Made by a program: the position numbers and the translations under genes. From Pseudomonadota bacterium (GTDB lineage Bacteria > Pseudomonadota > Gammaproteobacteria > JAKAQQ01): a DNA stretch of 64,000 nt. How positions within the stretch are numbered: the stretch's first letter is position 1; each line of letters opens with the position of its first letter. The notes beneath the pieces are model-generated. The model did not search any database. It was not told the origin of the DNA and saw only the letters and a list, made by a program, of their open reading frames with translations. The stretch spans positions 265,017 through 329,016 of the forward strand of contig DAHVLZ010000009.1 in NCBI GenBank assembly GCA_027320085.1, read 5' to 3'. Of this stretch, positions 27,683-41,611 are shown one piece after another.

Positions 27683-28357
27683 TTGGGCAAGATGTCCGTC
27701 GAACGAAACCTGTTTATTCCAGGGACCGCGGGACGCCTTGAGGCACGAGTTACAGAACCAGTGACGGGATCGTCCGGGTCTTCAGGGGCGATTGCCGTTG
27801 TTCTGCACCCTCATCCGCTCTTTCAAGGCAGTCTGGAAAACAAGGTGGTTTTCACGCTAACCCGAGCAGCCTCAAGTGCCGGTGCAGGGACTATCCGCTT
27901 CAATTTTCGTGGGGTCGGGAAGAGTGAAGGGCATTACGGGGAGGGGATCGGCGAACTCGCCGATGTTCATTCCGTCGTGTCCTGGGCTCGCGCGCAATGG
28001 GGTCCTGAACCAGCACTCTGGCTTCTCGGGTTCTCTTTCGGTGCCGGACTGGCTATCCAGAGTACCCGTGCACTAGAAGGCACTGCTTTGGTCACAATTG
28101 CCCCGCCAGTTCACCACCTTGCACTCGCACCCGAGCAGCTTCCGGCTTGCCCTTGGTTAATCATTCAGGGCGAAGACGACGAAATAGTCCCAGTACCCGC
28201 AGTCATCGATTGGAGCAGGAAACTGCCCACGCAAGCTATTTTCGAGCTCTGGCCACAGGTTACTCACTTTTTCCACGGGCAATTGGTACCGCTCAGATCA
28301 ACCGTTAGCCGCTTTTTGGTTGACCGTATCCACCAACCTCTGCCTTCTACAAGCTGA
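27683..28357 (+). CDS. Alpha/beta-fold hydrolase
   Basis: It has the GFSFG nucleophile elbow and acid/His positions in about 220 aa. Confidence 0.7.
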   Translation: MGKMSVERNLFIPGTAGRLEARVTEPVTGSSGSSGAIAVVLHPHPLFQGSLENKVVFTLTRAASSAGAGTIRFNFRGVGKSEGHYGEGIGELADVHSVVSWARAQWGPEPALWLLGFSFGAGLAIQSTRALEGTALVTIAPPVHHLALAPEQLPACPWLIIQGEDDEIVPVPAVIDWSRKLPTQAIFELWPQVTHFFHGQLVPLRSTVSRFLVDRIHQPLPSTS

Positions 28358-30377: not shown

Positions 30378-31448
30378 ATGCCTGAAGAAGCCATTCGCAT
30401 CCTTGATATAGCCCAGCTTTTGGAGTTCGGCGTACGAAACAACGCCTCCGACCTCCATATTTCCGCCGGCGAGCCCCCGATGATCCGGGTCGATGGAGAC
30501 ATCCGACGAATCAATTTGCCGCCCCTCGATGGAAAGAAAGTGCATGACATGATCTACGACATTATGAACGATAAACAAAGGAAGCACTTTGAGGAATTCA
30601 TGGATTGCGATTTTTCTTTTGAAATCAGTAAGCTAGCACGGTTCCGGGTCAACGCGTTCAATCAACGCAGGGGGCCAGGTGCAGTCTTCCGTACCATTCC
30701 CTCCGATGTCAAGACACTCGAGGATCTCGCCAGTCCGCCGACCTTCAAGGAACTCGTATTGCGACCCCGTGGGCTTGTCCTGGTCACCGGGCCAACCGGG
30801 TCCGGGAAGTCGACGACGCTCGCCGCCATGGTCAACCACGTCAACGAAAGTGTCATGTCCCACATTCTCACGATCGAGGACCCGATCGAGTTCGTGCACC
30901 AATCCAAGAAGTGTATTATCAACCAGAGGGAGATCCATGAGCACGCGCTCGGATTCGCAGAGGCCTTGCGTGCCGGATTGCGTGAAGATCCGGACGTGAT
31001 TTTAGTAGGTGAAATGCGTGATCTCGAAACCATCCGTCTGGCTCTCACAGCCGCCGAAACCGGTCACTTGGTTTTTGCAACCCTGCACACGAGTTCTGCC
31101 GCCAAGACAGTCGACCGTATCGTTGATGTCTTCCCGGCTGCCGAGAAGGATATGGTCCGCACCATGCTTTCCGAGTCACTGCAGGCTGTCATCTCGCAAA
31201 CCTTGCTCAAAAAGGTCGGCGGTGGACGGATTGCTGCCTACGAAATCATGACAGCCACTCCTGCGATCCGCAACCTGATTCGGGAAAACAAAGTAGCCCA
31301 GATGTACTCGGCCATCCAGACTGGGCAGGCACACGGCATGCAAACGTTGGACCAGTGCCTGTCTGAGTTGCTCCGCCGGGGCGCCATCACACGGGAGCAA
31401 GCTCGCATCAAGGCAACCAACAAAGAGCTGTTCGCCCCAGGGGGATAA
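30378..31448 (+). CDS. pilT: Type IV pilus retraction ATPase PilT
   Basis: Identity to PilT is high and near-continuous (MIRVDGDIRRINLPPL, LVLVTGPTGSGKSTTLAAM, AIRNLIRENKVAQMYSAIQTG). Confidence 0.9.
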   Translation: MPEEAIRILDIAQLLEFGVRNNASDLHISAGEPPMIRVDGDIRRINLPPLDGKKVHDMIYDIMNDKQRKHFEEFMDCDFSFEISKLARFRVNAFNQRRGPGAVFRTIPSDVKTLEDLASPPTFKELVLRPRGLVLVTGPTGSGKSTTLAAMVNHVNESVMSHILTIEDPIEFVHQSKKCIINQREIHEHALGFAEALRAGLREDPDVILVGEMRDLETIRLALTAAETGHLVFATLHTSSAAKTVDRIVDVFPAAEKDMVRTMLSESLQAVISQTLLKKVGGGRIAAYEIMTATPAIRNLIRENKVAQMYSAIQTGQAHGMQTLDQCLSELLRRGAITREQARIKATNKELFAPGG

Positions 31449-31451
31449 TTC

Positions 31452-32627
31452 ATGGACCGTGAACAAGCCATTAAGTTCGTCCACGATTTGCTGCGCATCA
31501 TGACCCAGCGCAGAGCCTCGGATCTCTTCATCGCAGCTGATTTCCCACCCGCCATGAAGATTGATGGTGAGGTCAAACCGGTATCCGACCGTCCCTTTAC
31601 TGCGGAACAGTCGGGTGTGATTGTCCGTGCCCTTTTCAATGACCGGCAGTCCCGCGAGTTCGATGCAACCAAGGAAATCAGTTTCGCAATAGCGCCGAAG
31701 GGGATTGGTCGGTTCCGGGTCAGTGCCTACGTCGAACAGGGACGGTTGGGTGCAGTTCTCCGCACGATTAATACACAGGTCCCCACAGTTGCCGAACTTG
31801 AGCTTCCACGGATCCTGGAAGACATCTCTCTCACCAAACGCGGGCTCGTGCTGGTGGTCGGAGCAACCGGCTCGGGAAAATCTACCACTCTGGCGGCTAT
31901 GATCCATCACCGGAATATTGTTGCTCATGACCACATTGTTACCATTGAGGATCCCATTGAGTATGTCCACGGTCATGGATCCTGCCTGGTCACCCAGCGC
32001 GAACTGGGCGTGGATACCGAATCTTGGGGGGCCGCCCTCAAAAATACACTGCGACAAGCGCCTGACGTCATCTTGATTGGGGAGATTCGAGATCCTGAAA
32101 CCATGTCATACGCCGTTGAGTTCGCCGAAACCGGACACCTCTGTCTCAGCACCCTGCATGCCAACAATGCCAACCAAGCGTTGGACCGAATCATTAATCT
32201 CTATCCCAAAGAACGGCGTCAGCAGTTGCTCATGGACCTTTCGCTGAACCTCAAAGCCATGGTCTCCCAGCGCCTCCTCCGACGGGCAAGCGGTACCGGC
32301 CGAGTGGCAGCCTTGGAAATCCTGGTCAACACGCCGTTGGCCGCTGACCTGATCTTCAAGGGTGAAATTGCCGAGCTCAAGGAACTAATGGCAAAGTCAG
32401 TCAACGCTGGTATGCAAACATTCGACCAAGCGATTTTTGACCTTTACGAGAACGGTACCATTAGCTACGAGGAGGCACTCCGCAATGCCGACTCACAGAA
32501 TGAGCTACGCCTCCGGATTAAGCTCGAAAGCAAACGGGCTTCACGACCAGACGATTCCGAGCTTGATCAGCTTCATTTATCGGAACCGGAAACGGCGCAA
32601 CCCAAGTCACTTCGTCCCGGAAAATAA
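31452..32627 (+). CDS. pilU: Type IV pilus ATPase PilU
   Basis: It shows the PilU-type sequence (GIGRFRVSAY, GATGSGKSTTLAAMI, HANNANQALDRI) and has the characteristic C-terminal extension. Confidence 0.9.
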   Translation: MDREQAIKFVHDLLRIMTQRRASDLFIAADFPPAMKIDGEVKPVSDRPFTAEQSGVIVRALFNDRQSREFDATKEISFAIAPKGIGRFRVSAYVEQGRLGAVLRTINTQVPTVAELELPRILEDISLTKRGLVLVVGATGSGKSTTLAAMIHHRNIVAHDHIVTIEDPIEYVHGHGSCLVTQRELGVDTESWGAALKNTLRQAPDVILIGEIRDPETMSYAVEFAETGHLCLSTLHANNANQALDRIINLYPKERRQQLLMDLSLNLKAMVSQRLLRRASGTGRVAALEILVNTPLAADLIFKGEIAELKELMAKSVNAGMQTFDQAIFDLYENGTISYEEALRNADSQNELRLRIKLESKRASRPDDSELDQLHLSEPETAQPKSLRPGK

Positions 32628-32666: not shown

Positions 32667-33722
32667 ATGAATCTAGAACCTTATCTGCGCCTGATGGCCG
32701 AAAGAGCCGCCTCGGATTTGTACCTGACCACAGGCTCGCCCATCAAGATCCGAGTCCAAGGGAGAGTTCTATCTGTGGGCCGGACTCCACTCGACGAATC
32801 GATGATCAGGGAAGCGACCCTTGGCATCATGAATGAAGCACTGATCAACCAGTTCGAGAATCGTCACCAAGCTGAATTCCCCCTGGAAATTACCGGAGTA
32901 GGGCGTTACCGGGTGAATGTGTTTCTCGAACGAGGCCGGGTTGCCATGGCCATCCGTTTTATTCCGATCAAGATCCCTGAATTGGACACCTTGGGGTTAC
33001 CTGGAGTTTTGAAGGAGCTGATTCGTGCACCAAGAGGACTCATCCTTGTCGTGGGCGCGACAGGTGCTGGGAAATCCACAACCCTGGCTTCCTTGATTGA
33101 CTACCGTAATGCACACCAGGCGGACCATATTCTCACCATTGAGGATCCCATCGAGTACGTCTACGAAAACCGCCTCTCGATTGTGAATCAACGTGAGGTC
33201 GGGAACGACGTTCTGAGTTACGCAGATGCCTTGCGTAGCGCATTGCGCGCGACACCCGATGTTCTGCTTATTGGTGAAATTCGGGACTCAGAGACCATGT
33301 CTGCCGCAGTTGAAATGGCCGCGACGGGCCACCTCACCTTGGCCACACTCCATACCAGCAATGCCCATCAGACCCTTGAACGGATCCTCAACTTGTACTC
33401 CGAATCGGCCCAGAAACTGGTACTGACTGACCTTTCAATCAACATGCGGGCAATCATCGCCCAGCGGCTGGTTCCCAATGTGGATGCGAAACTGGTTGCA
33501 GCTGTCGAAATCCTGCTCAATACCCCACATATGGCGGACTTGATTCACAAGGGAGAACTCGGTATGTTGCGTGAAGCCATGGAGTCGAGCCATGAAATTG
33601 GAATGCAAACATTCGATACGGCGCTCTACCAGCTCTACCGGGACGGCATCATTGACCTCAAGACCGGACTGAACTATGCCGATTCCCGAACCAACCTTGA
33701 AAACAAGATCCGTTTCGGCTGA
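32667..33722 (+). CDS. Third PilT/PilU-family ATPase paralog (PilU-like)
   Basis: A 351-aa protein with Walker A GATGAGKSTTLASL and the His box HTSNAHQTLERI. It is closest to the PilU subfamily. Confidence 0.85.
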   Translation: MNLEPYLRLMAERAASDLYLTTGSPIKIRVQGRVLSVGRTPLDESMIREATLGIMNEALINQFENRHQAEFPLEITGVGRYRVNVFLERGRVAMAIRFIPIKIPELDTLGLPGVLKELIRAPRGLILVVGATGAGKSTTLASLIDYRNAHQADHILTIEDPIEYVYENRLSIVNQREVGNDVLSYADALRSALRATPDVLLIGEIRDSETMSAAVEMAATGHLTLATLHTSNAHQTLERILNLYSESAQKLVLTDLSINMRAIIAQRLVPNVDAKLVAAVEILLNTPHMADLIHKGELGMLREAMESSHEIGMQTFDTALYQLYRDGIIDLKTGLNYADSRTNLENKIRFG

Positions 33723-35742
33723 ATATTCAACCGTCCCCGTATCTCTCCGCATCATTCCAAGAGTTCTGGGAGTCGGGAGCCTTGTCGCGCTTTGCCTGCT
33801 ACCGGCCTTCGGAGCCGGCCCCACCAAGACGATAAAGAGTGGCACTTCCCTTGTTGCGCCCGGCTTTGCCAATTCCCGCGCCATCCATGTCAGTCTATCC
33901 CCCAACGGCCATTGGCTGGCCATCGCAGGGTATTTCGGTGCTGCCCACCAAGAAGGACTGGCTCTCCTCAACCTGAGGGAGCCCCGCTATGACCAGCGCC
34001 TGCACGTAGTCCGCAAAAGCCAGATCAACCATCTACGGTGGGCAGGGCCCCACGTTCTGCTAGCCACGACCCGGATCAAGCTGCCAGGCTACCGCAAAAC
34101 CCTTCGGAGTGGAGAGATTTGGGCCATCCACCTGATTCATCATCACGCCCAAAGTAGCCTCCTTGCCGGATATCGGAAACAAGGCCTTGCGTTCAACATC
34201 GCTATTTACCTGATCCTGTCCCCACTCGACCATGATCCAGACCGGGTGGTAGTCGAGCGCTATTCTTCCGTTGACCTTGCACCGGAGACCGACATCCTAA
34301 ATGTCCAAACCGGCCTCATGCTGCGTGGGATCCATAGTCCACTGACAAACGGACAACTATTAACCGACAACGACGGGCATGTGCGTCTAGCCTTCGGTAC
34401 GAACGCACTCACCGGACAAATCGAGTTATGGTTCCGGAAACCACATACCCTGGAATGGAAGAATTTGAGCTTTCTCCTCAAGAACTTTGGGCCGGCATCA
34501 AATGTGAGACCCCTCGGGTTTCTACCTGGCAATCGCCACTTTTACCTCCTCCGGACCAGTCATTACGGCACCCTTGGGCTTTATGCCGTAAACCCTGACA
34601 ACGGGAGAGAAACCCGGCTCTATGTCAATCCCAAAAACGATATCCTGAGGATTGCCCGGTCGCCCTCCGGGCGGGTTTATGCGGTCTGGGTGGGGATCCA
34701 GAAACCACACTGGGTTGTGATTGCCCCCAAAAACCGCGAAGCCGAATGGCTTAGATTACTTTCACCGGTCTTCCGCAACCAGCGGGTCACCATCCGGGAC
34801 GTCACCCGTGATCGCACCATGGCTTTGATCCGCGTCCGGGGAGATCGCAATGCGGGAGAATACTATCTCTTCGATCCCAAAAGACACCTCTTGCGATATC
34901 TCCTGAGTACACAACCGGGAATAGCGCCACCTGAACTGTCTTCTTGGCACACGTTCATGCTCCCTTGGCGTGGCCTCAAAGAACCGGTCTATCTGGCTTA
35001 TCCGCACGGTCCGGCCCGTGACCGCAAGGGTTTGGTCGTCTGGATCCATGGGCACCCCTTCGAGGAAGGCATACGCTGGCGTTCTGATCCTCGCCTCCAA
35101 GAACTCACACGCCATGGTTTCGTAGTTATGGAAGTTGACTACCCGGGTTCCTTTGGCCGTGGGAAAGTCTGGCGCCAACTGGGGTACCACCAATGGGGTA
35201 GAACCATGCTGGATGGGATCTGGGCCGCAGTTCGCTGGGTGGCTGGACAGCACGGGATCCCCTTTGGCCGGCTGGCTCTGGCAGGGCATGGTTACGGCGG
35301 ATATGCCGCACTCATGCTCGGAGCCGAGCACCCCAGGCAGGTTCGGGCAATCGTGAGCCTGAACGGCATTTATGAACTGTCGTTGCTGAGAACGCCTGAG
35401 GAGCGATTATGGCGTTCGCCTTTTGGCAGGCGGTTCCTGAATACGGTACTTGGGCATCAACACCTCAATGCCGACTCTCCTCTTGCCCGTGCCCGATCAA
35501 TACGTGCACCAGTTTTCCTGATCCATGGAGGAAGAGACTCCAGGGATCCTTCCGGTGGAGAAAACCATCTTGTATTGATCCTCAAAGAACACTCTGTTCT
35601 GGTCCGGCTCCTTGAAGAACCCACCCAAGGCTGGCATTTCACAGGCGCTCGCACCCGCTCCAAGATTTGGCGTGGGATCGCAACTTTCCTGAACCAGGCA
35701 TTTGCGTCAGGGTCTCCCCTCACCCCGATCCACCGTGACTGA
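33676..35742 (+). CDS. Prolyl-oligopeptidase (S9) family homolog with beta-propeller N-domain; nucleophile Ser replaced by Gly
   Basis: The catalytic-domain elbow reads GHGYGG instead of GxSYGG (Gly codon ggt at 35290-35292). Asp (HGGRDSRD) and His (GWHF) are retained. There is an N-terminal signal-like segment. The start is uncertain because of a 47-nt overlap with the upstream gene. Confidence 0.65.
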   Translation: MPIPEPTLKTRSVSAEYSTVPVSLRIIPRVLGVGSLVALCLLPAFGAGPTKTIKSGTSLVAPGFANSRAIHVSLSPNGHWLAIAGYFGAAHQEGLALLNLREPRYDQRLHVVRKSQINHLRWAGPHVLLATTRIKLPGYRKTLRSGEIWAIHLIHHHAQSSLLAGYRKQGLAFNIAIYLILSPLDHDPDRVVVERYSSVDLAPETDILNVQTGLMLRGIHSPLTNGQLLTDNDGHVRLAFGTNALTGQIELWFRKPHTLEWKNLSFLLKNFGPASNVRPLGFLPGNRHFYLLRTSHYGTLGLYAVNPDNGRETRLYVNPKNDILRIARSPSGRVYAVWVGIQKPHWVVIAPKNREAEWLRLLSPVFRNQRVTIRDVTRDRTMALIRVRGDRNAGEYYLFDPKRHLLRYLLSTQPGIAPPELSSWHTFMLPWRGLKEPVYLAYPHGPARDRKGLVVWIHGHPFEEGIRWRSDPRLQELTRHGFVVMEVDYPGSFGRGKVWRQLGYHQWGRTMLDGIWAAVRWVAGQHGIPFGRLALAGHGYGGYAALMLGAEHPRQVRAIVSLNGIYELSLLRTPEERLWRSPFGRRFLNTVLGHQHLNADSPLARARSIRAPVFLIHGGRDSRDPSGGENHLVLILKEHSVLVRLLEEPTQGWHFTGARTRSKIWRGIATFLNQAFASGSPLTPIHRD

Positions 35743-37831
35743 ATCCGGCGTGGGAATCGACAAACCCCCAACCCCCAAGGCCCGCAAACCGCTGCCCCCG
35801 GACGCTGAATCCTTCATTTCGGAAATCGTCCGCTGGGGGTTTCATGGACTTGAAGATCTGCTGTTTGATCTCCCGCTGCGCTACGAAGACGAAACCCAAA
35901 TCACACCCATCGGGGCACTGGCACCAGGTCAGTCCGCGTTGGTCCAGGGAAAAGTTGAACTAGCCGATATCCGATACATACCTCGTCGTCAGCTGTTATG
36001 CCGCATTGCCGATGGAAGCGGTCACTTGCACCTACGGTTCTTTCACTTTTACAACTCGCAACATGTCGGATTTAAGCGAGGTTTGACGGTCCGGGCATTT
36101 GGCACCCTACGGGAAGGTGGGCTGGGCCGGGAGTTTATCCATCCGCGATACCGGGTTTTCAAGGGCAGTCTGCCTCCGCTTAAACGGAACCTGACCGCAG
36201 TCTATTCCAAGCGGGCCGGAGTGGAGTCGCGCCATCAGGAACGACTGATTGCCATGGCACTCGACCTCATGGAACAAAAACAGCTCGAACTACCCGATCA
36301 TCTACCTCCTACACTAATCCGGCCATGGGCTTCCTGCAGTCTTCTGGAAGCACTGCGTGGTGTACACCAGCCCCCAGCTGGCCTCCCACTGGAATCACTC
36401 GAGAATTGGCTCAAACCTTATCAAAGGCGACTGGCCTTTGAGGAACTGCTCGCTCATGCCTTGTCACTGCGAAAAATCCGAATGGTCTGGGAACGTGCAC
36501 GAAGCCACCCTCTTACTATTCCCGCCAAACCACTGGCCCATTTTCTCAAAACCCTGCCCTGGGAATTGACCGGAGCCCAGCAACGTACTTGGCATGAGAT
36601 CGAATGCGACCTCTCCAGTGGAAAACCCATGCTCCGGCTTCTACAGGGAGATGTCGGTTCCGGGAAAACCCTGCTTGCCATTCTGGCCGCTTGGGCTACT
36701 TTGATAAATCGAGGACAGGTCGCCGTGATGGCCCCGACCGAACTCCTCGCTGACCAGCATTACACCACCTTTCAGAGATTTCTTTCCCCACTGGAGAAAC
36801 CTGTTCTGAGACTGGCTTCCCGCTCCCCGAAAAGCCAGCGACGCCTGATTCTGGAGTGCCTTGCCGCGGGCACACCCTGTGTGGTTATCGGAACTCAAAA
36901 CCTGTTCCAAAATGAAGTCGTCTTTGGCCATCTGACGACCGTCATCATTGATGAACAGCACCGATTCGGAGTCGAACAACGTCTGGATCTGGTCAACAAA
37001 GGCACCCGGACACGCCCCCACCAACTCATCATGACGGCCACACCGATCCCCCGTACCTTGGCGATGTCACTGTATGCAGGCCTGGATCAATCTCGTCTCG
37101 ACGAACTCCCACCGGGTCGCCAAGGGATCTCGACAACGATTTTCCCAGCCGAGCGACGCGCTGAAATCATGTCGCGGCTGCAGGCATTGTGTGAGAAAGG
37201 TCAGCGAATCTTCTGGGTATGCCCAAGAATCGAGGAAAACGAGGGTTCCGGTGGCCGTGCGGCAGAAACAGCGCTTGAGGACCTCCGAAGGACTCTTCCC
37301 CAACTTCCCGTAGGCCTGCTACATGGACGGGTTGGCGGTCCTGAGCGACAGCAGATCATTGAGGGATTCCGGGATGGTCGGATCCCGATTCTCGTCAGCA
37401 CGACTGTCGTCGAAGTCGGAGTTGATATCCCGGAAGCGACAGTCATGGTAGTTGACGGCGCGGAGCGATTGGGCCTCTTGCAGTTGCATCAGCTGCGTGG
37501 CCGTGTTGGCCGAGGGTCACAGCCGGGCCAATGCCTGTTGATCTATGAAACCCTTTCTCCGGATGCCCGTTCACGTCTTGAGGTCATGCGGCAAAGCAGT
37601 GACGGGTTTTGGATTGCGGAACAGGATCTTGAAATCAGAGGGCCGGGTGAGATCTGGGGGGCGCGGCAGAGCGGAGGATTGAACTTCCGCGTTGCCCAGC
37701 TTTACCGGGACCGAGACCTCCTTACACTCATTCCTGAGGCCACCCAAAGGCTGGCTAACGAAAATCCTGAGACCATTGAACCTTTGGTCGCTCGCTGGAT
37801 AGGAGGAGACCTGCGTTTCGGCAGTGCCTGA
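35702..37831 (+). CDS. recG: ATP-dependent DNA helicase RecG
   Basis: It has a wedge domain plus SF2 helicase motifs (GDVGSGKT, DEQHRFG, TATPIPRT, QLRGRVGRG) over ~700 aa. Confidence 0.85.
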   Translation: MRQGLPSPRSTVTESGVGIDKPPTPKARKPLPPDAESFISEIVRWGFHGLEDLLFDLPLRYEDETQITPIGALAPGQSALVQGKVELADIRYIPRRQLLCRIADGSGHLHLRFFHFYNSQHVGFKRGLTVRAFGTLREGGLGREFIHPRYRVFKGSLPPLKRNLTAVYSKRAGVESRHQERLIAMALDLMEQKQLELPDHLPPTLIRPWASCSLLEALRGVHQPPAGLPLESLENWLKPYQRRLAFEELLAHALSLRKIRMVWERARSHPLTIPAKPLAHFLKTLPWELTGAQQRTWHEIECDLSSGKPMLRLLQGDVGSGKTLLAILAAWATLINRGQVAVMAPTELLADQHYTTFQRFLSPLEKPVLRLASRSPKSQRRLILECLAAGTPCVVIGTQNLFQNEVVFGHLTTVIIDEQHRFGVEQRLDLVNKGTRTRPHQLIMTATPIPRTLAMSLYAGLDQSRLDELPPGRQGISTTIFPAERRAEIMSRLQALCEKGQRIFWVCPRIEENEGSGGRAAETALEDLRRTLPQLPVGLLHGRVGGPERQQIIEGFRDGRIPILVSTTVVEVGVDIPEATVMVVDGAERLGLLQLHQLRGRVGRGSQPGQCLLIYETLSPDARSRLEVMRQSSDGFWIAEQDLEIRGPGEIWGARQSGGLNFRVAQLYRDRDLLTLIPEATQRLANENPETIEPLVARWIGGDLRFGSA

Positions 37832-38617: not shown

Positions 38618-40156
38618 GTGCGACAAATCGTCAAAAACAGTTTACTGGTCGTTTTGAGCGTGACTTCAGCCGGAGCTTGGGCACGCCTGCCAGTTCATGA
38701 ACCCGTCGCTCCTGCCCACCCGATTCTCGGGCGCCGCATTGTCAGCCACGGGGTGGTTGTGGTGGATGGCCGCCGCATCCCTTATACGGCAACCGCGGGA
38801 ACTCTTATTCTCAAAAACAAAAAGAACCAGCCAACAGCTAGCATGTTTTATGTGGCCTATACCCGTTCTGGCGTCCGCCACCTCTCGCAGCGACCGATCA
38901 CATTCGTCTACAACGGTGGACCTGGTTCATCCTCCGTATGGCTACTCATGGGTGGACTCGGTGCTGTCCGGGTTGTCACAGCCAACGCTCGGGTCACCCC
39001 GCCACCACCTTACCCCGTGATTTCCAGCCCATCGAGCCTGTTACCGGTCACCGATCTGGTATTCATTGATGCTGTTGGCACCGGATACAGCCATGTGGTT
39101 GGGGTTGGCCGGGACAAAGATTTCTGGGGAGTCGATGACGACGTGCGCTCTTTTGGACAATTTATTGAGCGCTACATCAGCCAGAACAACCGCTGGAACT
39201 CACCCAAGTTCCTGCTTGGAGAAAGCTATGGGACCACCCGATCGGCCAATCTTGTGGATTACCTCGAGGGGCAAGGAATCACCTGTAATGGCGTGATCCT
39301 GCTTTCCTCTATCTTGAACTACGGGGATTCCTGGCCCGGTACCGATCTGCGTTACATAACCTACCTGCCTTCCTATACGGCAGTCGCCTGGTATCACCAT
39401 GCCTTGCCTGAGCAACCGGCACATCTTGCCCCTCTCATCCGCAAGGTCGAGCAGTTTGCCCGAACCTCCTACGCTTATGCCCTTTTCCAGGGGAGTCGTC
39501 TCAGCCCGGCCAAGAAAGCTGCCGTTCTGGCCACGCTGCATCAATATACAGGCCTCAGTACCGGCTTTCTCGAGGCGGTCCACCTACGGGTCACTCCGGA
39601 CCGTTTTAGAGCGCAACTGCTAAGAGATCGAGGCCGTGAACAGTTTGTTGGCCGGCTTGATGCACGCTTCACAGGGATCAATCGGGATGGGGCCGAGGAA
39701 TCCCCGGACTACGGGGCGCTCATGGCCGCCGTTTCGCCCGCTTTCACGGCGGCATTCAACTGGTATGTCCGCGAACGCCTGCATTACAGCGCTCATCGCG
39801 CCTATCGGGTGATGAACGGGCAGGTTATCCAGAAGTGGAACTGGAATCACCGGTTTCCGGGAGCTGGTTACTCCTGGCCCTTGCCTGATGTTGCACCCAA
39901 CCTGGCGGATGCGATGAGGAAAAACCCCTATCTCCAGATTTTTTCAGGCAATGGATATTTTGACCTCGCAACACCGTTTTACAAGACCGAGTTCGACTTT
40001 GCCCATATGAAACTCCCTCATCGCCTCATGACACGAATCCATTTTCACTTCTACCACTCCGGGCATATGCTCTACCTTCACCCAGCCACCCTGGCTCATC
40101 TTGACCGCAATCTGATCCAGTTCTATCACATGGTTCTTGCCAGAGATCACCAGTAA
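38618..40156 (+). CDS. Peptidase S10 (serine carboxypeptidase) family protein, secreted
   Basis: It has a signal peptide and the GESYGT nucleophile motif (canonical S10 GESYAG). The overall alpha/beta carboxypeptidase length is ~510 aa. Confidence 0.65.
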   Translation: MRQIVKNSLLVVLSVTSAGAWARLPVHEPVAPAHPILGRRIVSHGVVVVDGRRIPYTATAGTLILKNKKNQPTASMFYVAYTRSGVRHLSQRPITFVYNGGPGSSSVWLLMGGLGAVRVVTANARVTPPPPYPVISSPSSLLPVTDLVFIDAVGTGYSHVVGVGRDKDFWGVDDDVRSFGQFIERYISQNNRWNSPKFLLGESYGTTRSANLVDYLEGQGITCNGVILLSSILNYGDSWPGTDLRYITYLPSYTAVAWYHHALPEQPAHLAPLIRKVEQFARTSYAYALFQGSRLSPAKKAAVLATLHQYTGLSTGFLEAVHLRVTPDRFRAQLLRDRGREQFVGRLDARFTGINRDGAEESPDYGALMAAVSPAFTAAFNWYVRERLHYSAHRAYRVMNGQVIQKWNWNHRFPGAGYSWPLPDVAPNLADAMRKNPYLQIFSGNGYFDLATPFYKTEFDFAHMKLPHRLMTRIHFHFYHSGHMLYLHPATLAHLDRNLIQFYHMVLARDHQ

Positions 40157-40171: not shown

Positions 40172-41611
40172 ATGCTGGATATGCGCCGAACCATTGCTGC
40201 GTCACAAACTCTAGACAGGGATGCGGTCGGGTTCTGGCAACTGACCTACCAGTCTATCTCGCTGATTGCTCCGGCTGGCGCGATGGCAGCAACCTTAACC
40301 GGTGCCGCCGTCTATGCGCGGGGCGCTCTGCCCTTGGCCATGCTGGCCGGCGTCATCACGGCGGGCCTCATGATCAATACCACTCTCCAGTTTGCAAAAT
40401 CGATTGCCTCAGCGGGCGGGTTTTATAGCTATATTGCCCACGGACTGGGAAGCCGATGGGCAGTTTACGGGGCCTTCCTATTTCTCATTTCCTACTTCAA
40501 CATCTTGACCAATGCCACTATTTTCGTTGGTGGGGTTTTCCTCCCTGGTACCCTCCACCATTTCTTGGGCATTGCTTCCCCGGGGTGGCTTTGGTGGCCG
40601 GTTACTCTCCTATTTTATGGGGTGGTTCTCCTGCTGGCACTCAAGGGGATCCGCCCTTCACTGCGTTATGCAGTCTGGACCGGGACTGCCGAAATTGTTG
40701 TTCTTCTCGTCCTGTCGATCCTGCTGATCATCCAATCTCCGAATCCTGTGACTTGGGAAGTGCTGAACCCGTTCTGGGCCAAGGGTGGCTTGAGCGGCTT
40801 CGGACATGGGGTCCTGATCGCCATGTTCGCCGTTTCCGGATCCTCGGCAGCAGTCGCATTGGGCGAGGAAACACGATCTCCCCAAAAGCGCATCCGCGGA
40901 GCTGTGATCGCAGCTTTTTTCTTCTCGTCCGTATTGTTCCTGCTCATGGCTTATGCTTTGACGGTAGCCTGGGGTTATACCCGAATGGGCAGTTTTGCCC
41001 AGTCGCTTGTTCCTGGAGCAATCCTTGTCCAGGAGGTGCTGCATTCGCCCGTCTTGGCCTGGCTTATCCTTCTGTTGATCGCAAACTCGATGCTCGCGGG
41101 CAGTCTAGCGCCGCTGCTCAGTTGCGCACGGATGATCTTTGCTCTTGGCCGTGATGGGGTCGTTTTTCCGGAACGGTTGGGACAAACCGATGCACGGCGC
41201 AATCCGTCACAGGCCCTGATTGTGACCACGCTCGCTGCCGCTGCTCTTTCCTTGTGTACCGGATTCTGGCTGGGCCCATTTCATGGCTACATCTTGCTCA
41301 TCACCTTGAGCAGCCTGGGACTCTTCTTGGGTCATATCCTGGCCAACTGTGCACTCGGACCATTCGCTCGCAGGACAGGACATAGCCACTGGCTCCTTCA
41401 CTGGGTGATTCCGGCAATGGCCTCACTGCTCATTGCCGCTGCCATGGTCCTGACGCTGGTTCCCATTTCAGCCCGAATTGCGCTGGCCCCTCTTTTTATT
41501 CTTCTCACTCTCGGCATCGTCTGGTTGCGTTTACGCCGAGCATCACCGGAGAAAATTGCTGCAGCCGGTCGCCTCAATGTGATCGACGAAATTTCCTCTC
41601 CCACGCTTTAA
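40172..41611 (+). CDS. APC-superfamily permease
   Basis: A 479-aa protein with about 12 TM helices. Confidence 0.7.
   Translation: MLDMRRTIAASQTLDRDAVGFWQLTYQSISLIAPAGAMAATLTGAAVYARGALPLAMLAGVITAGLMINTTLQFAKSIASAGGFYSYIAHGLGSRWAVYGAFLFLISYFNILTNATIFVGGVFLPGTLHHFLGIASPGWLWWPVTLLFYGVVLLLALKGIRPSLRYAVWTGTAEIVVLLVLSILLIIQSPNPVTWEVLNPFWAKGGLSGFGHGVLIAMFAVSGSSAAVALGEETRSPQKRIRGAVIAAFFFSSVLFLLMAYALTVAWGYTRMGSFAQSLVPGAILVQEVLHSPVLAWLILLLIANSMLAGSLAPLLSCARMIFALGRDGVVFPERLGQTDARRNPSQALIVTTLAAAALSLCTGFWLGPFHGYILLITLSSLGLFLGHILANCALGPFARRTGHSHWLLHWVIPAMASLLIAAAMVLTLVPISARIALAPLFILLTLGIVWLRLRRASPEKIAAAGRLNVIDEISSPTL

Follow-up and report, generated by a model that had tools for sequence, protein, structure and literature searches.

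What becomes of a serine peptidase scaffold once its nucleophile has been replaced by glycine is the question raised by one gene in a 64,000-nucleotide stretch of DNA from a Pseudomonadota bacterium (contig DAHVLZ010000009.1, positions 265,017 to 329,016; hereafter the window). The initial annotation had described the product as a homolog of the S9 prolyl oligopeptidases in which the motif GHGYGG replaces the canonical G-x-S-x-G-G. Two explanations had been left standing, a dead pseudo-peptidase, perhaps with a binding or scaffold role, or a single A-to-G sequencing error that turned agt into ggt. The open reading frame (ORF) is as described there, and our analysis favours the first explanation: the protein is probably an exported pseudo-peptidase of S9C descent, devoid of serine-hydrolase chemistry and maintained for something other than catalysis, with ligand binding in the cell envelope as the most plausible role. 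The gene and its parts are as follows.

33676..35742, plus strand: ORF of the S9-like pseudo-peptidase, 688 amino acids plus stop
33676..33855, plus strand: N-terminal region, residues 1-60, a basic stretch followed by the hydrophobic segment RIIPRVLGVGSLVALCLLPAFGAG
33865..34995, plus strand: beta-propeller domain, residues 64-440, from AlphaFold2 secondary structure and Foldseek matches to S9 structures
34996..35715, plus strand: alpha/beta-hydrolase (Peptidase_S9) domain, residues 441-680, from Pfam and from phmmer against the PDB
35047..35058, plus strand: H458-G-H460-P, HGGP in the family, aligned with H367-G368-G369-P370 of ApAAP
35284..35301, plus strand: nucleophile-elbow motif GHGYGG, DNA GGG CAT GGT TAC GGC GGA
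35290-35292, plus strand: codon GGT for Gly539, in place of the catalytic Ser by alignment to S9C structures and relatives
35536..35544, plus strand: D621-S-R623, aligned with D524-S-R526 of ApAAP; catalytic Asp kept
35626..35640, plus strand: Q651-G-W653-H654-F, E-G-H-G-F in the family; Trp in the catalytic-His column and His at +1

Membership of the S9 family was established from both sequence and predicted structure. The Pfam family PF00326 (Peptidase_S9) matched residues 471-677 at E=1.3e-20, its score of 74.2 bits exceeding the threshold of 22.6, while NCBIfam gave weak, sub-threshold matches only, for example to Dpp5. Searches of the PDB with phmmer retrieved the acylaminoacyl peptidase of Sporosarcina psychrophila (5l8s, E=5e-14) and that of Aeropyrum pernix (ApAAP, 1ve6, E=1e-9), with weak matches to chains of the DPP (S9B) type, namely DPP9, DPP8 and bacterial DPP IV (E ~1e-4 to 1e-2). 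An AlphaFold2 model built on the homolog alignment (predicted local distance difference test score, pLDDT, 75.7; predicted template modelling score, pTM, 0.76) has the architecture of an S9 homolog, with a beta-propeller towards the N-terminus and an alpha/beta-hydrolase domain behind it, and its approximately 28 beta-strands over residues 68-411 are consistent with seven blades. Foldseek placed 5l8s first among PDB structures (E=2.7e-24, template modelling score 0.73), and further full-length matches were to the S9 carboxypeptidase 8wt1, the Deinococcus S9 peptidase 6igq and DPP4, with E values for the whole set, 5l8s included, of 1e-21 to 1e-24. The best matches in sequence and in fold are therefore S9C acylaminoacyl/dipeptidyl peptidases. 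With these enzymes the window protein shares the seven-bladed propeller joined to a hydrolase domain, the G-x-x-Y-G-G frame, the catalytic Asp and the S-x-G-x-G motif. It departs from them in having Gly for the nucleophilic Ser, His at the equivalent of Gly369 and Trp at the equivalent of His556 (reference active-site residues are numbered as in ApAAP), and in lacking R490, N488, D514 and the Cys534/Cys558 pair (window-protein numbering), all near-universal in the family.

The replacement of the nucleophile was examined at the level of the reading frame and of the alignment. The peptide LALAGHGYGGYAAL is present in the translated ORF, with GGT as codon 539, and phmmer comparison with all PDB chains paired Gly539 residue for residue with the nucleophilic Ser of 5l8s (GGSYGG) and of ApAAP (GYSYGG, Ser445). 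In a MAFFT alignment of 163 sequences, this column holds Ser in 144 of the 154 relatives that lie outside a nine-member clade to which the window protein belongs and which carries Gly (the Gly clade). The Ser of the G-x-S-x-G-G motif found in active S9 peptidases is thus missing, and the Ser-to-Gly change reported at 35290-35292 is borne out by the ORF, by Pfam and by the alignment to PDB chains. Because overall identity to characterized S9 enzymes in the structural alignments is just 11-16%, one might suppose that the motif is not the S9 nucleophile elbow at all and that the true nucleophile lies elsewhere in the protein. We consider this very unlikely, since Pfam, phmmer against the PDB, the MAFFT alignment with 154 relatives and the AlphaFold2 secondary structure all place Gly539 in the same G-x-S-x-G-G column. 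The flanking residues G537, Y540, G541 and G542 also agree with the family consensus, and in the model a strand (533-538) and a helix (540-551) bracket Gly539 with the geometry of an elbow. Misalignment of the elbow was accordingly rejected on the agreement of four independent alignments or models.

The remainder of the active site has been altered as well. In ApAAP the triad is Ser445/His556/Asp524, the oxyanion hole is built by Gly369 and Tyr446, and Arg526 is a substrate-recognition residue (PMC4394528). The initial annotation considered the Asp and His of the triad to be conserved, which holds for one of the two. Asp621 aligns with Asp524 of ApAAP in a column that is Asp in 160 of the 163 aligned sequences and invariant in the Gly clade. 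The column of the catalytic His, which in active S9 peptidases lies in a C-terminal E-G-H-G-F loop and is His in 99% of the Ser-bearing relatives, is occupied by Trp653 in the window protein, both in the alignment with 5l8s and in the 163-sequence MAFFT alignment. The nearest histidine, His654, is shifted by one position, with no indel between Gly652 and Phe655. The oxyanion-hole Gly of the HGGP motif (Gly369 of ApAAP) is also absent from the window protein: 143 of 144 active relatives have Gly in its column, which is filled here by His460. The equivalent of Arg526, Arg623, is kept. With Ser539, the oxyanion Gly and the general-base His all replaced, and Asp621 alone left, covalent serine-peptidase catalysis would not be expected of this protein.

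Whether these changes could stem from a faulty base call or a recent pseudogene was addressed with orthologs drawn from NCBI, ENA, Logan and JGI assemblies. A protein 100% identical to that of the window (P0001) is present in independent assemblies, in both NCBI and ENA records, and a homolog search returned eight further clusters, defined at 90% identity, that are 91, 82, 73 and 52-55% identical to it. All nine cluster representatives read G-[H/T/S]-G-Y-G-G. Among full-length cluster members, P0164-P0166, P0168, P0169 and P0171-P0174 likewise carry Gly, so that the residue occupies the nucleophile column in every close homolog, some 18 distinct sequences that were independently assembled and whose identities reach as low as 50%. 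In a neighbour-joining (NJ) tree the Gly clade is monophyletic. It comprises two sub-clades: clade A (the window protein and P0002-P0004) has GHGYGG, HGHP and QGWHF at the three altered motifs, and clade B (P0005-P0009) has G[T/S]GYGG, HDHP and QGHRF, keeping His653 at the canonical column and having lost Arg623. All carriers of the gene are metagenome-assembled genomes labelled as uncultured 'Proteobacteria/Gammaproteobacteria bacterium' or a mine-drainage metagenome; scanning genome contigs gave five loci, all from uncultured Proteobacteria assemblies of this kind, and scanning metagenomes gave one.

The Gly codon differs among these loci, being GGT in the window and L010, GGC in L001, L008 and L009, and GGG in L004 and L011. 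Since the codon varies synonymously while the Gly stays constant, a base-calling artefact is excluded, and it is Gly itself that has been maintained. Selection on the gene was estimated as the ratio of non-synonymous to synonymous substitution rates (dN/dS), using the pairwise method of Nei and Gojobori (NG86) on a codon alignment and restricted to unsaturated pairs. Over the whole gene the ratio is 0.13-0.18; taken by domain, the propeller gives 0.10-0.15 and the hydrolase domain 0.11-0.19. For matching genome pairs, the ratio is 0.085-0.093 for recG, 0.09-0.10 for ubiC and 0.02-0.06 for the pilT-family genes, and the hydrolase domain is thus as constrained as bona fide housekeeping neighbours. 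The S9-like gene is functional and under purifying selection and is no decaying pseudogene. A single transition does separate GGT from the Ser codon AGT, which gave the idea of a sequencing or assembly error, or of a recent pseudogene of an otherwise ordinary active S9 peptidase, its initial appeal. Given the independent assemblies of an identical protein, the presence of Gly in each homolog with lineage-specific codons, the intact 688-residue frame at low dN/dS and the replacement of two further catalytic elements, we regard such an origin as extremely improbable, and the A-to-G error proposed as an alternative in the initial annotation is refuted. The ortholog comparison recommended there instead found Gly in all orthologs: Gly is ancestral to the clade and selected, and the pseudo-peptidase replacement is conserved across orthologs.

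Changes in the Gly clade extend well beyond the catalytic residues. When 1.84 billion cluster representatives were searched exhaustively with HMMER (E <=0.001), 9,717 relatives were returned, only one of them from the clade (P0008, 729 bits), and the score falls from this value to 273 bits (approximately 30% identity) just outside the clade. We defined family-conserved positions as the 66 alignment columns that are at least 85% conserved among the 144 Ser-bearing relatives. Almost half of these (32/66) are changed in the Gly clade, 28 of 53 in the hydrolase domain and four of 13 in the propeller. S539G and G460H are among the changes common to all members, H653W is confined to clade A, and G459D and R623Q/E are confined to clade B; others are G654H/R, R490P, N488D, D514G, D466I/M/F and E651Q. 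This loss of different secondary catalytic residues in the two sub-clades is the pattern expected once catalysis has been abandoned. Many of the new residues do not vary within the clade (P490, D488, W499, A517, A534, A558 and Q651), and a further 84 positions, spread over both domains, are clade-invariant yet rare (<10%) in active relatives. The re-fixation of new residues, together with low dN/dS, suggests that a different function is now under selection. Residues 534 and 558 (35275-35277 and 35347-35349) are a Cys pair in active relatives, 93-95% conserved, and Ala/Ala throughout the Gly clade; the pair may form a disulfide in exported enzymes.

Loss of the nucleophile is not restricted to this clade. 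Ten of the 154 relatives outside it (approximately 6%; P0028, P0051, P0057, P0099, P0103, P0110, P0122, P0128, P0141 and P0144) have A, G, Y, R, H, D or N in place of Ser, and their HGGP motif is often altered too. By NJ distances, the nearest neighbour of each of these ten representatives is Ser-bearing, which indicates that the nucleophile has been lost independently and recurrently in this exported S9C-like subfamily. A common origin of the clade-wide loss with these ten cases was rejected on the same grounds.

Taken at its most probable, the history of the protein would begin with a serine peptidase of the S9C (acylaminoacyl/dipeptidyl) type, which gave rise to a probably exported protein of two domains, a propeller with seven blades and an alpha/beta hydrolase, behind a signal-like segment. 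Catalytic residues were lost long ago, before the separation of two sub-clades that are now approximately 50% identical. Purifying selection has since acted on what seems a retained but changed function, with many family-conserved positions fixed to new residues. Most likely, the protein would bind a peptide or protein in the envelope, without catalysis, through the preserved propeller and hydrolase cavity. The dead pseudo-peptidase of the initial annotation therefore gains support beyond the argument first made for it, from Trp in the His column, from His460 at the oxyanion Gly and from a dN/dS of 0.13-0.18.

Several observations weigh against this reading. Within the clade, few parts of the protein are as well conserved as the loops of the former active site (W-I-H-x-H-P-F, G-x-G-Y-G-G-Y-A-A and P-T-Q-G-x-x-F-T-G). 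Asp621 does not vary, and every member has a His at either 653 or 654. The comparative sample is small, with approximately nine distinct lineages, all from metagenome-assembled genomes. Moreover, inactivity was deduced from sequence, and export from the N-terminal sequence only. An alternative is that the protein is still an enzyme with a different chemistry, such as a His/Asp-based or metal-assisted hydrolase, lyase or transferase that uses His458, His460, Asp621 and His653/654; in a variant of this idea, Thr/Ser538 of clade B could serve as a displaced nucleophile. The conservation of Asp621 and of a neighbouring His would suit such an enzyme, as would the fixation of the clade-specific His460 and Asp488 and, by our count, the invariance across the clade of approximately 24 of 33 residues in four motif blocks as against approximately 36% of residues overall. 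However, the two sub-clades share no candidate nucleophile, position 538 being His in A and Thr/Ser in B. The position of the His also differs between them and Arg623 has been lost in B, a mosaic of losses that resembles relaxed constraint on catalysis. On balance we judge a different chemistry to be unlikely. A bolder proposal, to which we assign a low probability, is that the S9 scaffold was converted and not simply inactivated, the clade-fixed His458-x-His460, Asp488, Asp621 and His653/654 having turned the former active-site pocket into a novel centre for catalysis or for binding metal or protons. The prolyl-oligopeptidase fold would then carry an enzyme that works without serine, or a sensor. 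Its place of action could be the acidic envelope of bacteria from mine drainage, perhaps in concert with the PilT/PilU ATPases encoded next to it.

An envelope location for the pseudo-peptidase is suggested by its N-terminus. Residues 1-60 look like a signal peptide or membrane anchor, are modelled by AlphaFold2 as a disordered or signal-like stretch with pLDDT <50 and show a relaxed dN/dS of 0.4-0.65, and the clade-B orthologs have an N-terminus of the classical signal-like type (...A-x-A|EA). Counted from the ATG at 33676, the first 47 nt of the ORF lie within the 3' end of the pilT/U-family gene upstream; the sole other canonical in-frame start is a TTG at 33697, and one source calls a clade A gene from a TTG at the equivalent position (P0168). 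In clade B, the pilT/U-family gene and the S9-like gene are 18 nt apart and do not overlap.

The genes that flank the S9-like gene are as follows.

30378-31448, 31452-32627 and 32667-33722, plus strand: three tandem PilT/PilU-family ATPase genes, immediately upstream
35702..37831, plus strand: recG helicase gene, immediately downstream; its longest ORF overlaps the S9-like stop codon

The three upstream genes encode paralogous type IVa pilus ATPases of the PilT/PilU family (TIGR01420; 501, 434 and 406 bits) and are separated by gaps of 3 and 39 nt. Downstream, ubiC follows recG in the same-strand block, and proC and yggT lie upstream in divergent orientation. The order pilT-pilT-pilU / S9-like / recG is kept in the clade A loci L001-L003 and in the clade B loci L004-L006. 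No promoter-like or convincing terminator-like site was seen between the genes of the block, and no Rfam RNA element was matched in the window. GC content is uniform (0.54-0.59) across 28-42 kb, on the basis of which recent horizontal acquisition was rejected.

This arrangement raises the possibility that the S9-like protein serves type IV pilus retraction, as an accessory factor in the envelope to the system encoded just upstream. The short or overlapping junctions between these genes in both sub-clades, the lack of separating sites within the block and the location of the active relatives P0016 and P0010 in unrelated neighbourhoods are all in keeping with such a tie. However, the genomes of the two sub-clades are related and generally syntenic, the order of proC, yggT, recG and ubiC being kept as well, and shared ancestry would suffice to account for the arrangement. 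With a whole neighbourhood that is syntenic in related genomes, gene position alone is no proof of a link with pili. The block also contains recG, which has nothing to do with pili; the S9-like protein looks exported, unlike the cytoplasmic PilT and PilU; and Pfam and NCBIfam searches revealed no homology to a known pilus component. A role in pilus retraction is therefore improbable in our estimation.

Other hydrolase genes lie in the vicinity. A small alpha/beta hydrolase of 224 amino acids with an intact GFSFG elbow is encoded at 27683-28357 (plus strand). Its match to NCBIfam NF058544 (the Myxococcus 'type IV pili motility protein SglT') scores 44.6 bits, below the threshold of 300. In L001 and L004, too, the pilT block has a homolog of this hydrolase upstream of it, and a weak lead is that proteins of the alpha/beta-hydrolase fold accompany the pilT genes at this locus. 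Further downstream, 38618-40156 (plus strand) encodes an S10-like serine carboxypeptidase of 512 amino acids whose N-terminus is signal-like and whose GESYG motif is intact; its Pfam match is weak (E=3e-8), and it has no NCBIfam match. It is followed at 40172-41611 (plus strand) by an amino-acid permease gene, and the pair is kept downstream in clade A loci.

Pseudo-peptidases of this kind are known from other lineages. The closest parallel to an exported bacterial pseudo-peptidase of S9C descent is DPP10, whose elbow reads GKGYGG with Gly for Ser and which retains the hydrogen-bonded His and Asp of the triad; it is inactive, and changing the Gly to Ser restores no activity (PMC4350108). The animal proteins DPP10 (DPPY) and DPP6 (DPPX) have the same scaffold and the same kind of loss and are auxiliary subunits of Kv4 channels, kept for binding (PMC4350108). 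They are, however, eukaryotic type II membrane glycoproteins of subfamily S9B, whereas the window protein comes from a bacterium, is S9C-like and apparently has seven blades. With its best relatives of the S9C type and a bacterial host, it does not belong to the DPP6/DPP10 subfamily. DPP10 is the nearest functional analogy and does not imply membership, and the bacterial loss is independent, within an S9C-like lineage. MEROPS recognizes 'non-peptidase homologues' in almost all families, defined by the replacement of at least one active-site residue by one unknown in active members (PMC3625958). The window protein falls within this definition for S9 through its Ser-to-Gly and His-to-Trp changes, and the pseudo-peptidase kind is in this sense already known. 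The MEROPS class is a matter of bookkeeping and implies no function, whereas the loss described here is clade-wide and selected, with re-fixed residues. In the set of literature searched, no characterized bacterial S9 pseudo-peptidase was found.

Here we have described a clean and well-supported bacterial case in which the scaffold of a serine peptidase has been kept after losing catalysis. The finding corrects annotation: proteins of the clade are named in their source records as prolyl oligopeptidase family protein, dienelactone hydrolase, pimeloyl-ACP methyl ester carboxylesterase or alpha/beta hydrolase. None of these names flags inactivity, and automatic naming as prolyl oligopeptidase, dienelactone hydrolase or carboxylesterase is misleading. 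Its practical value is modest and it opens no long-standing question, but the clade is a candidate for studying neofunctionalization. Finally, independent loss of the nucleophile in ten of the 154 nearest cluster representatives outside the clade suggests that exported S9C proteins of bacteria may have become pseudo-peptidases repeatedly, an outcome that has received little study.

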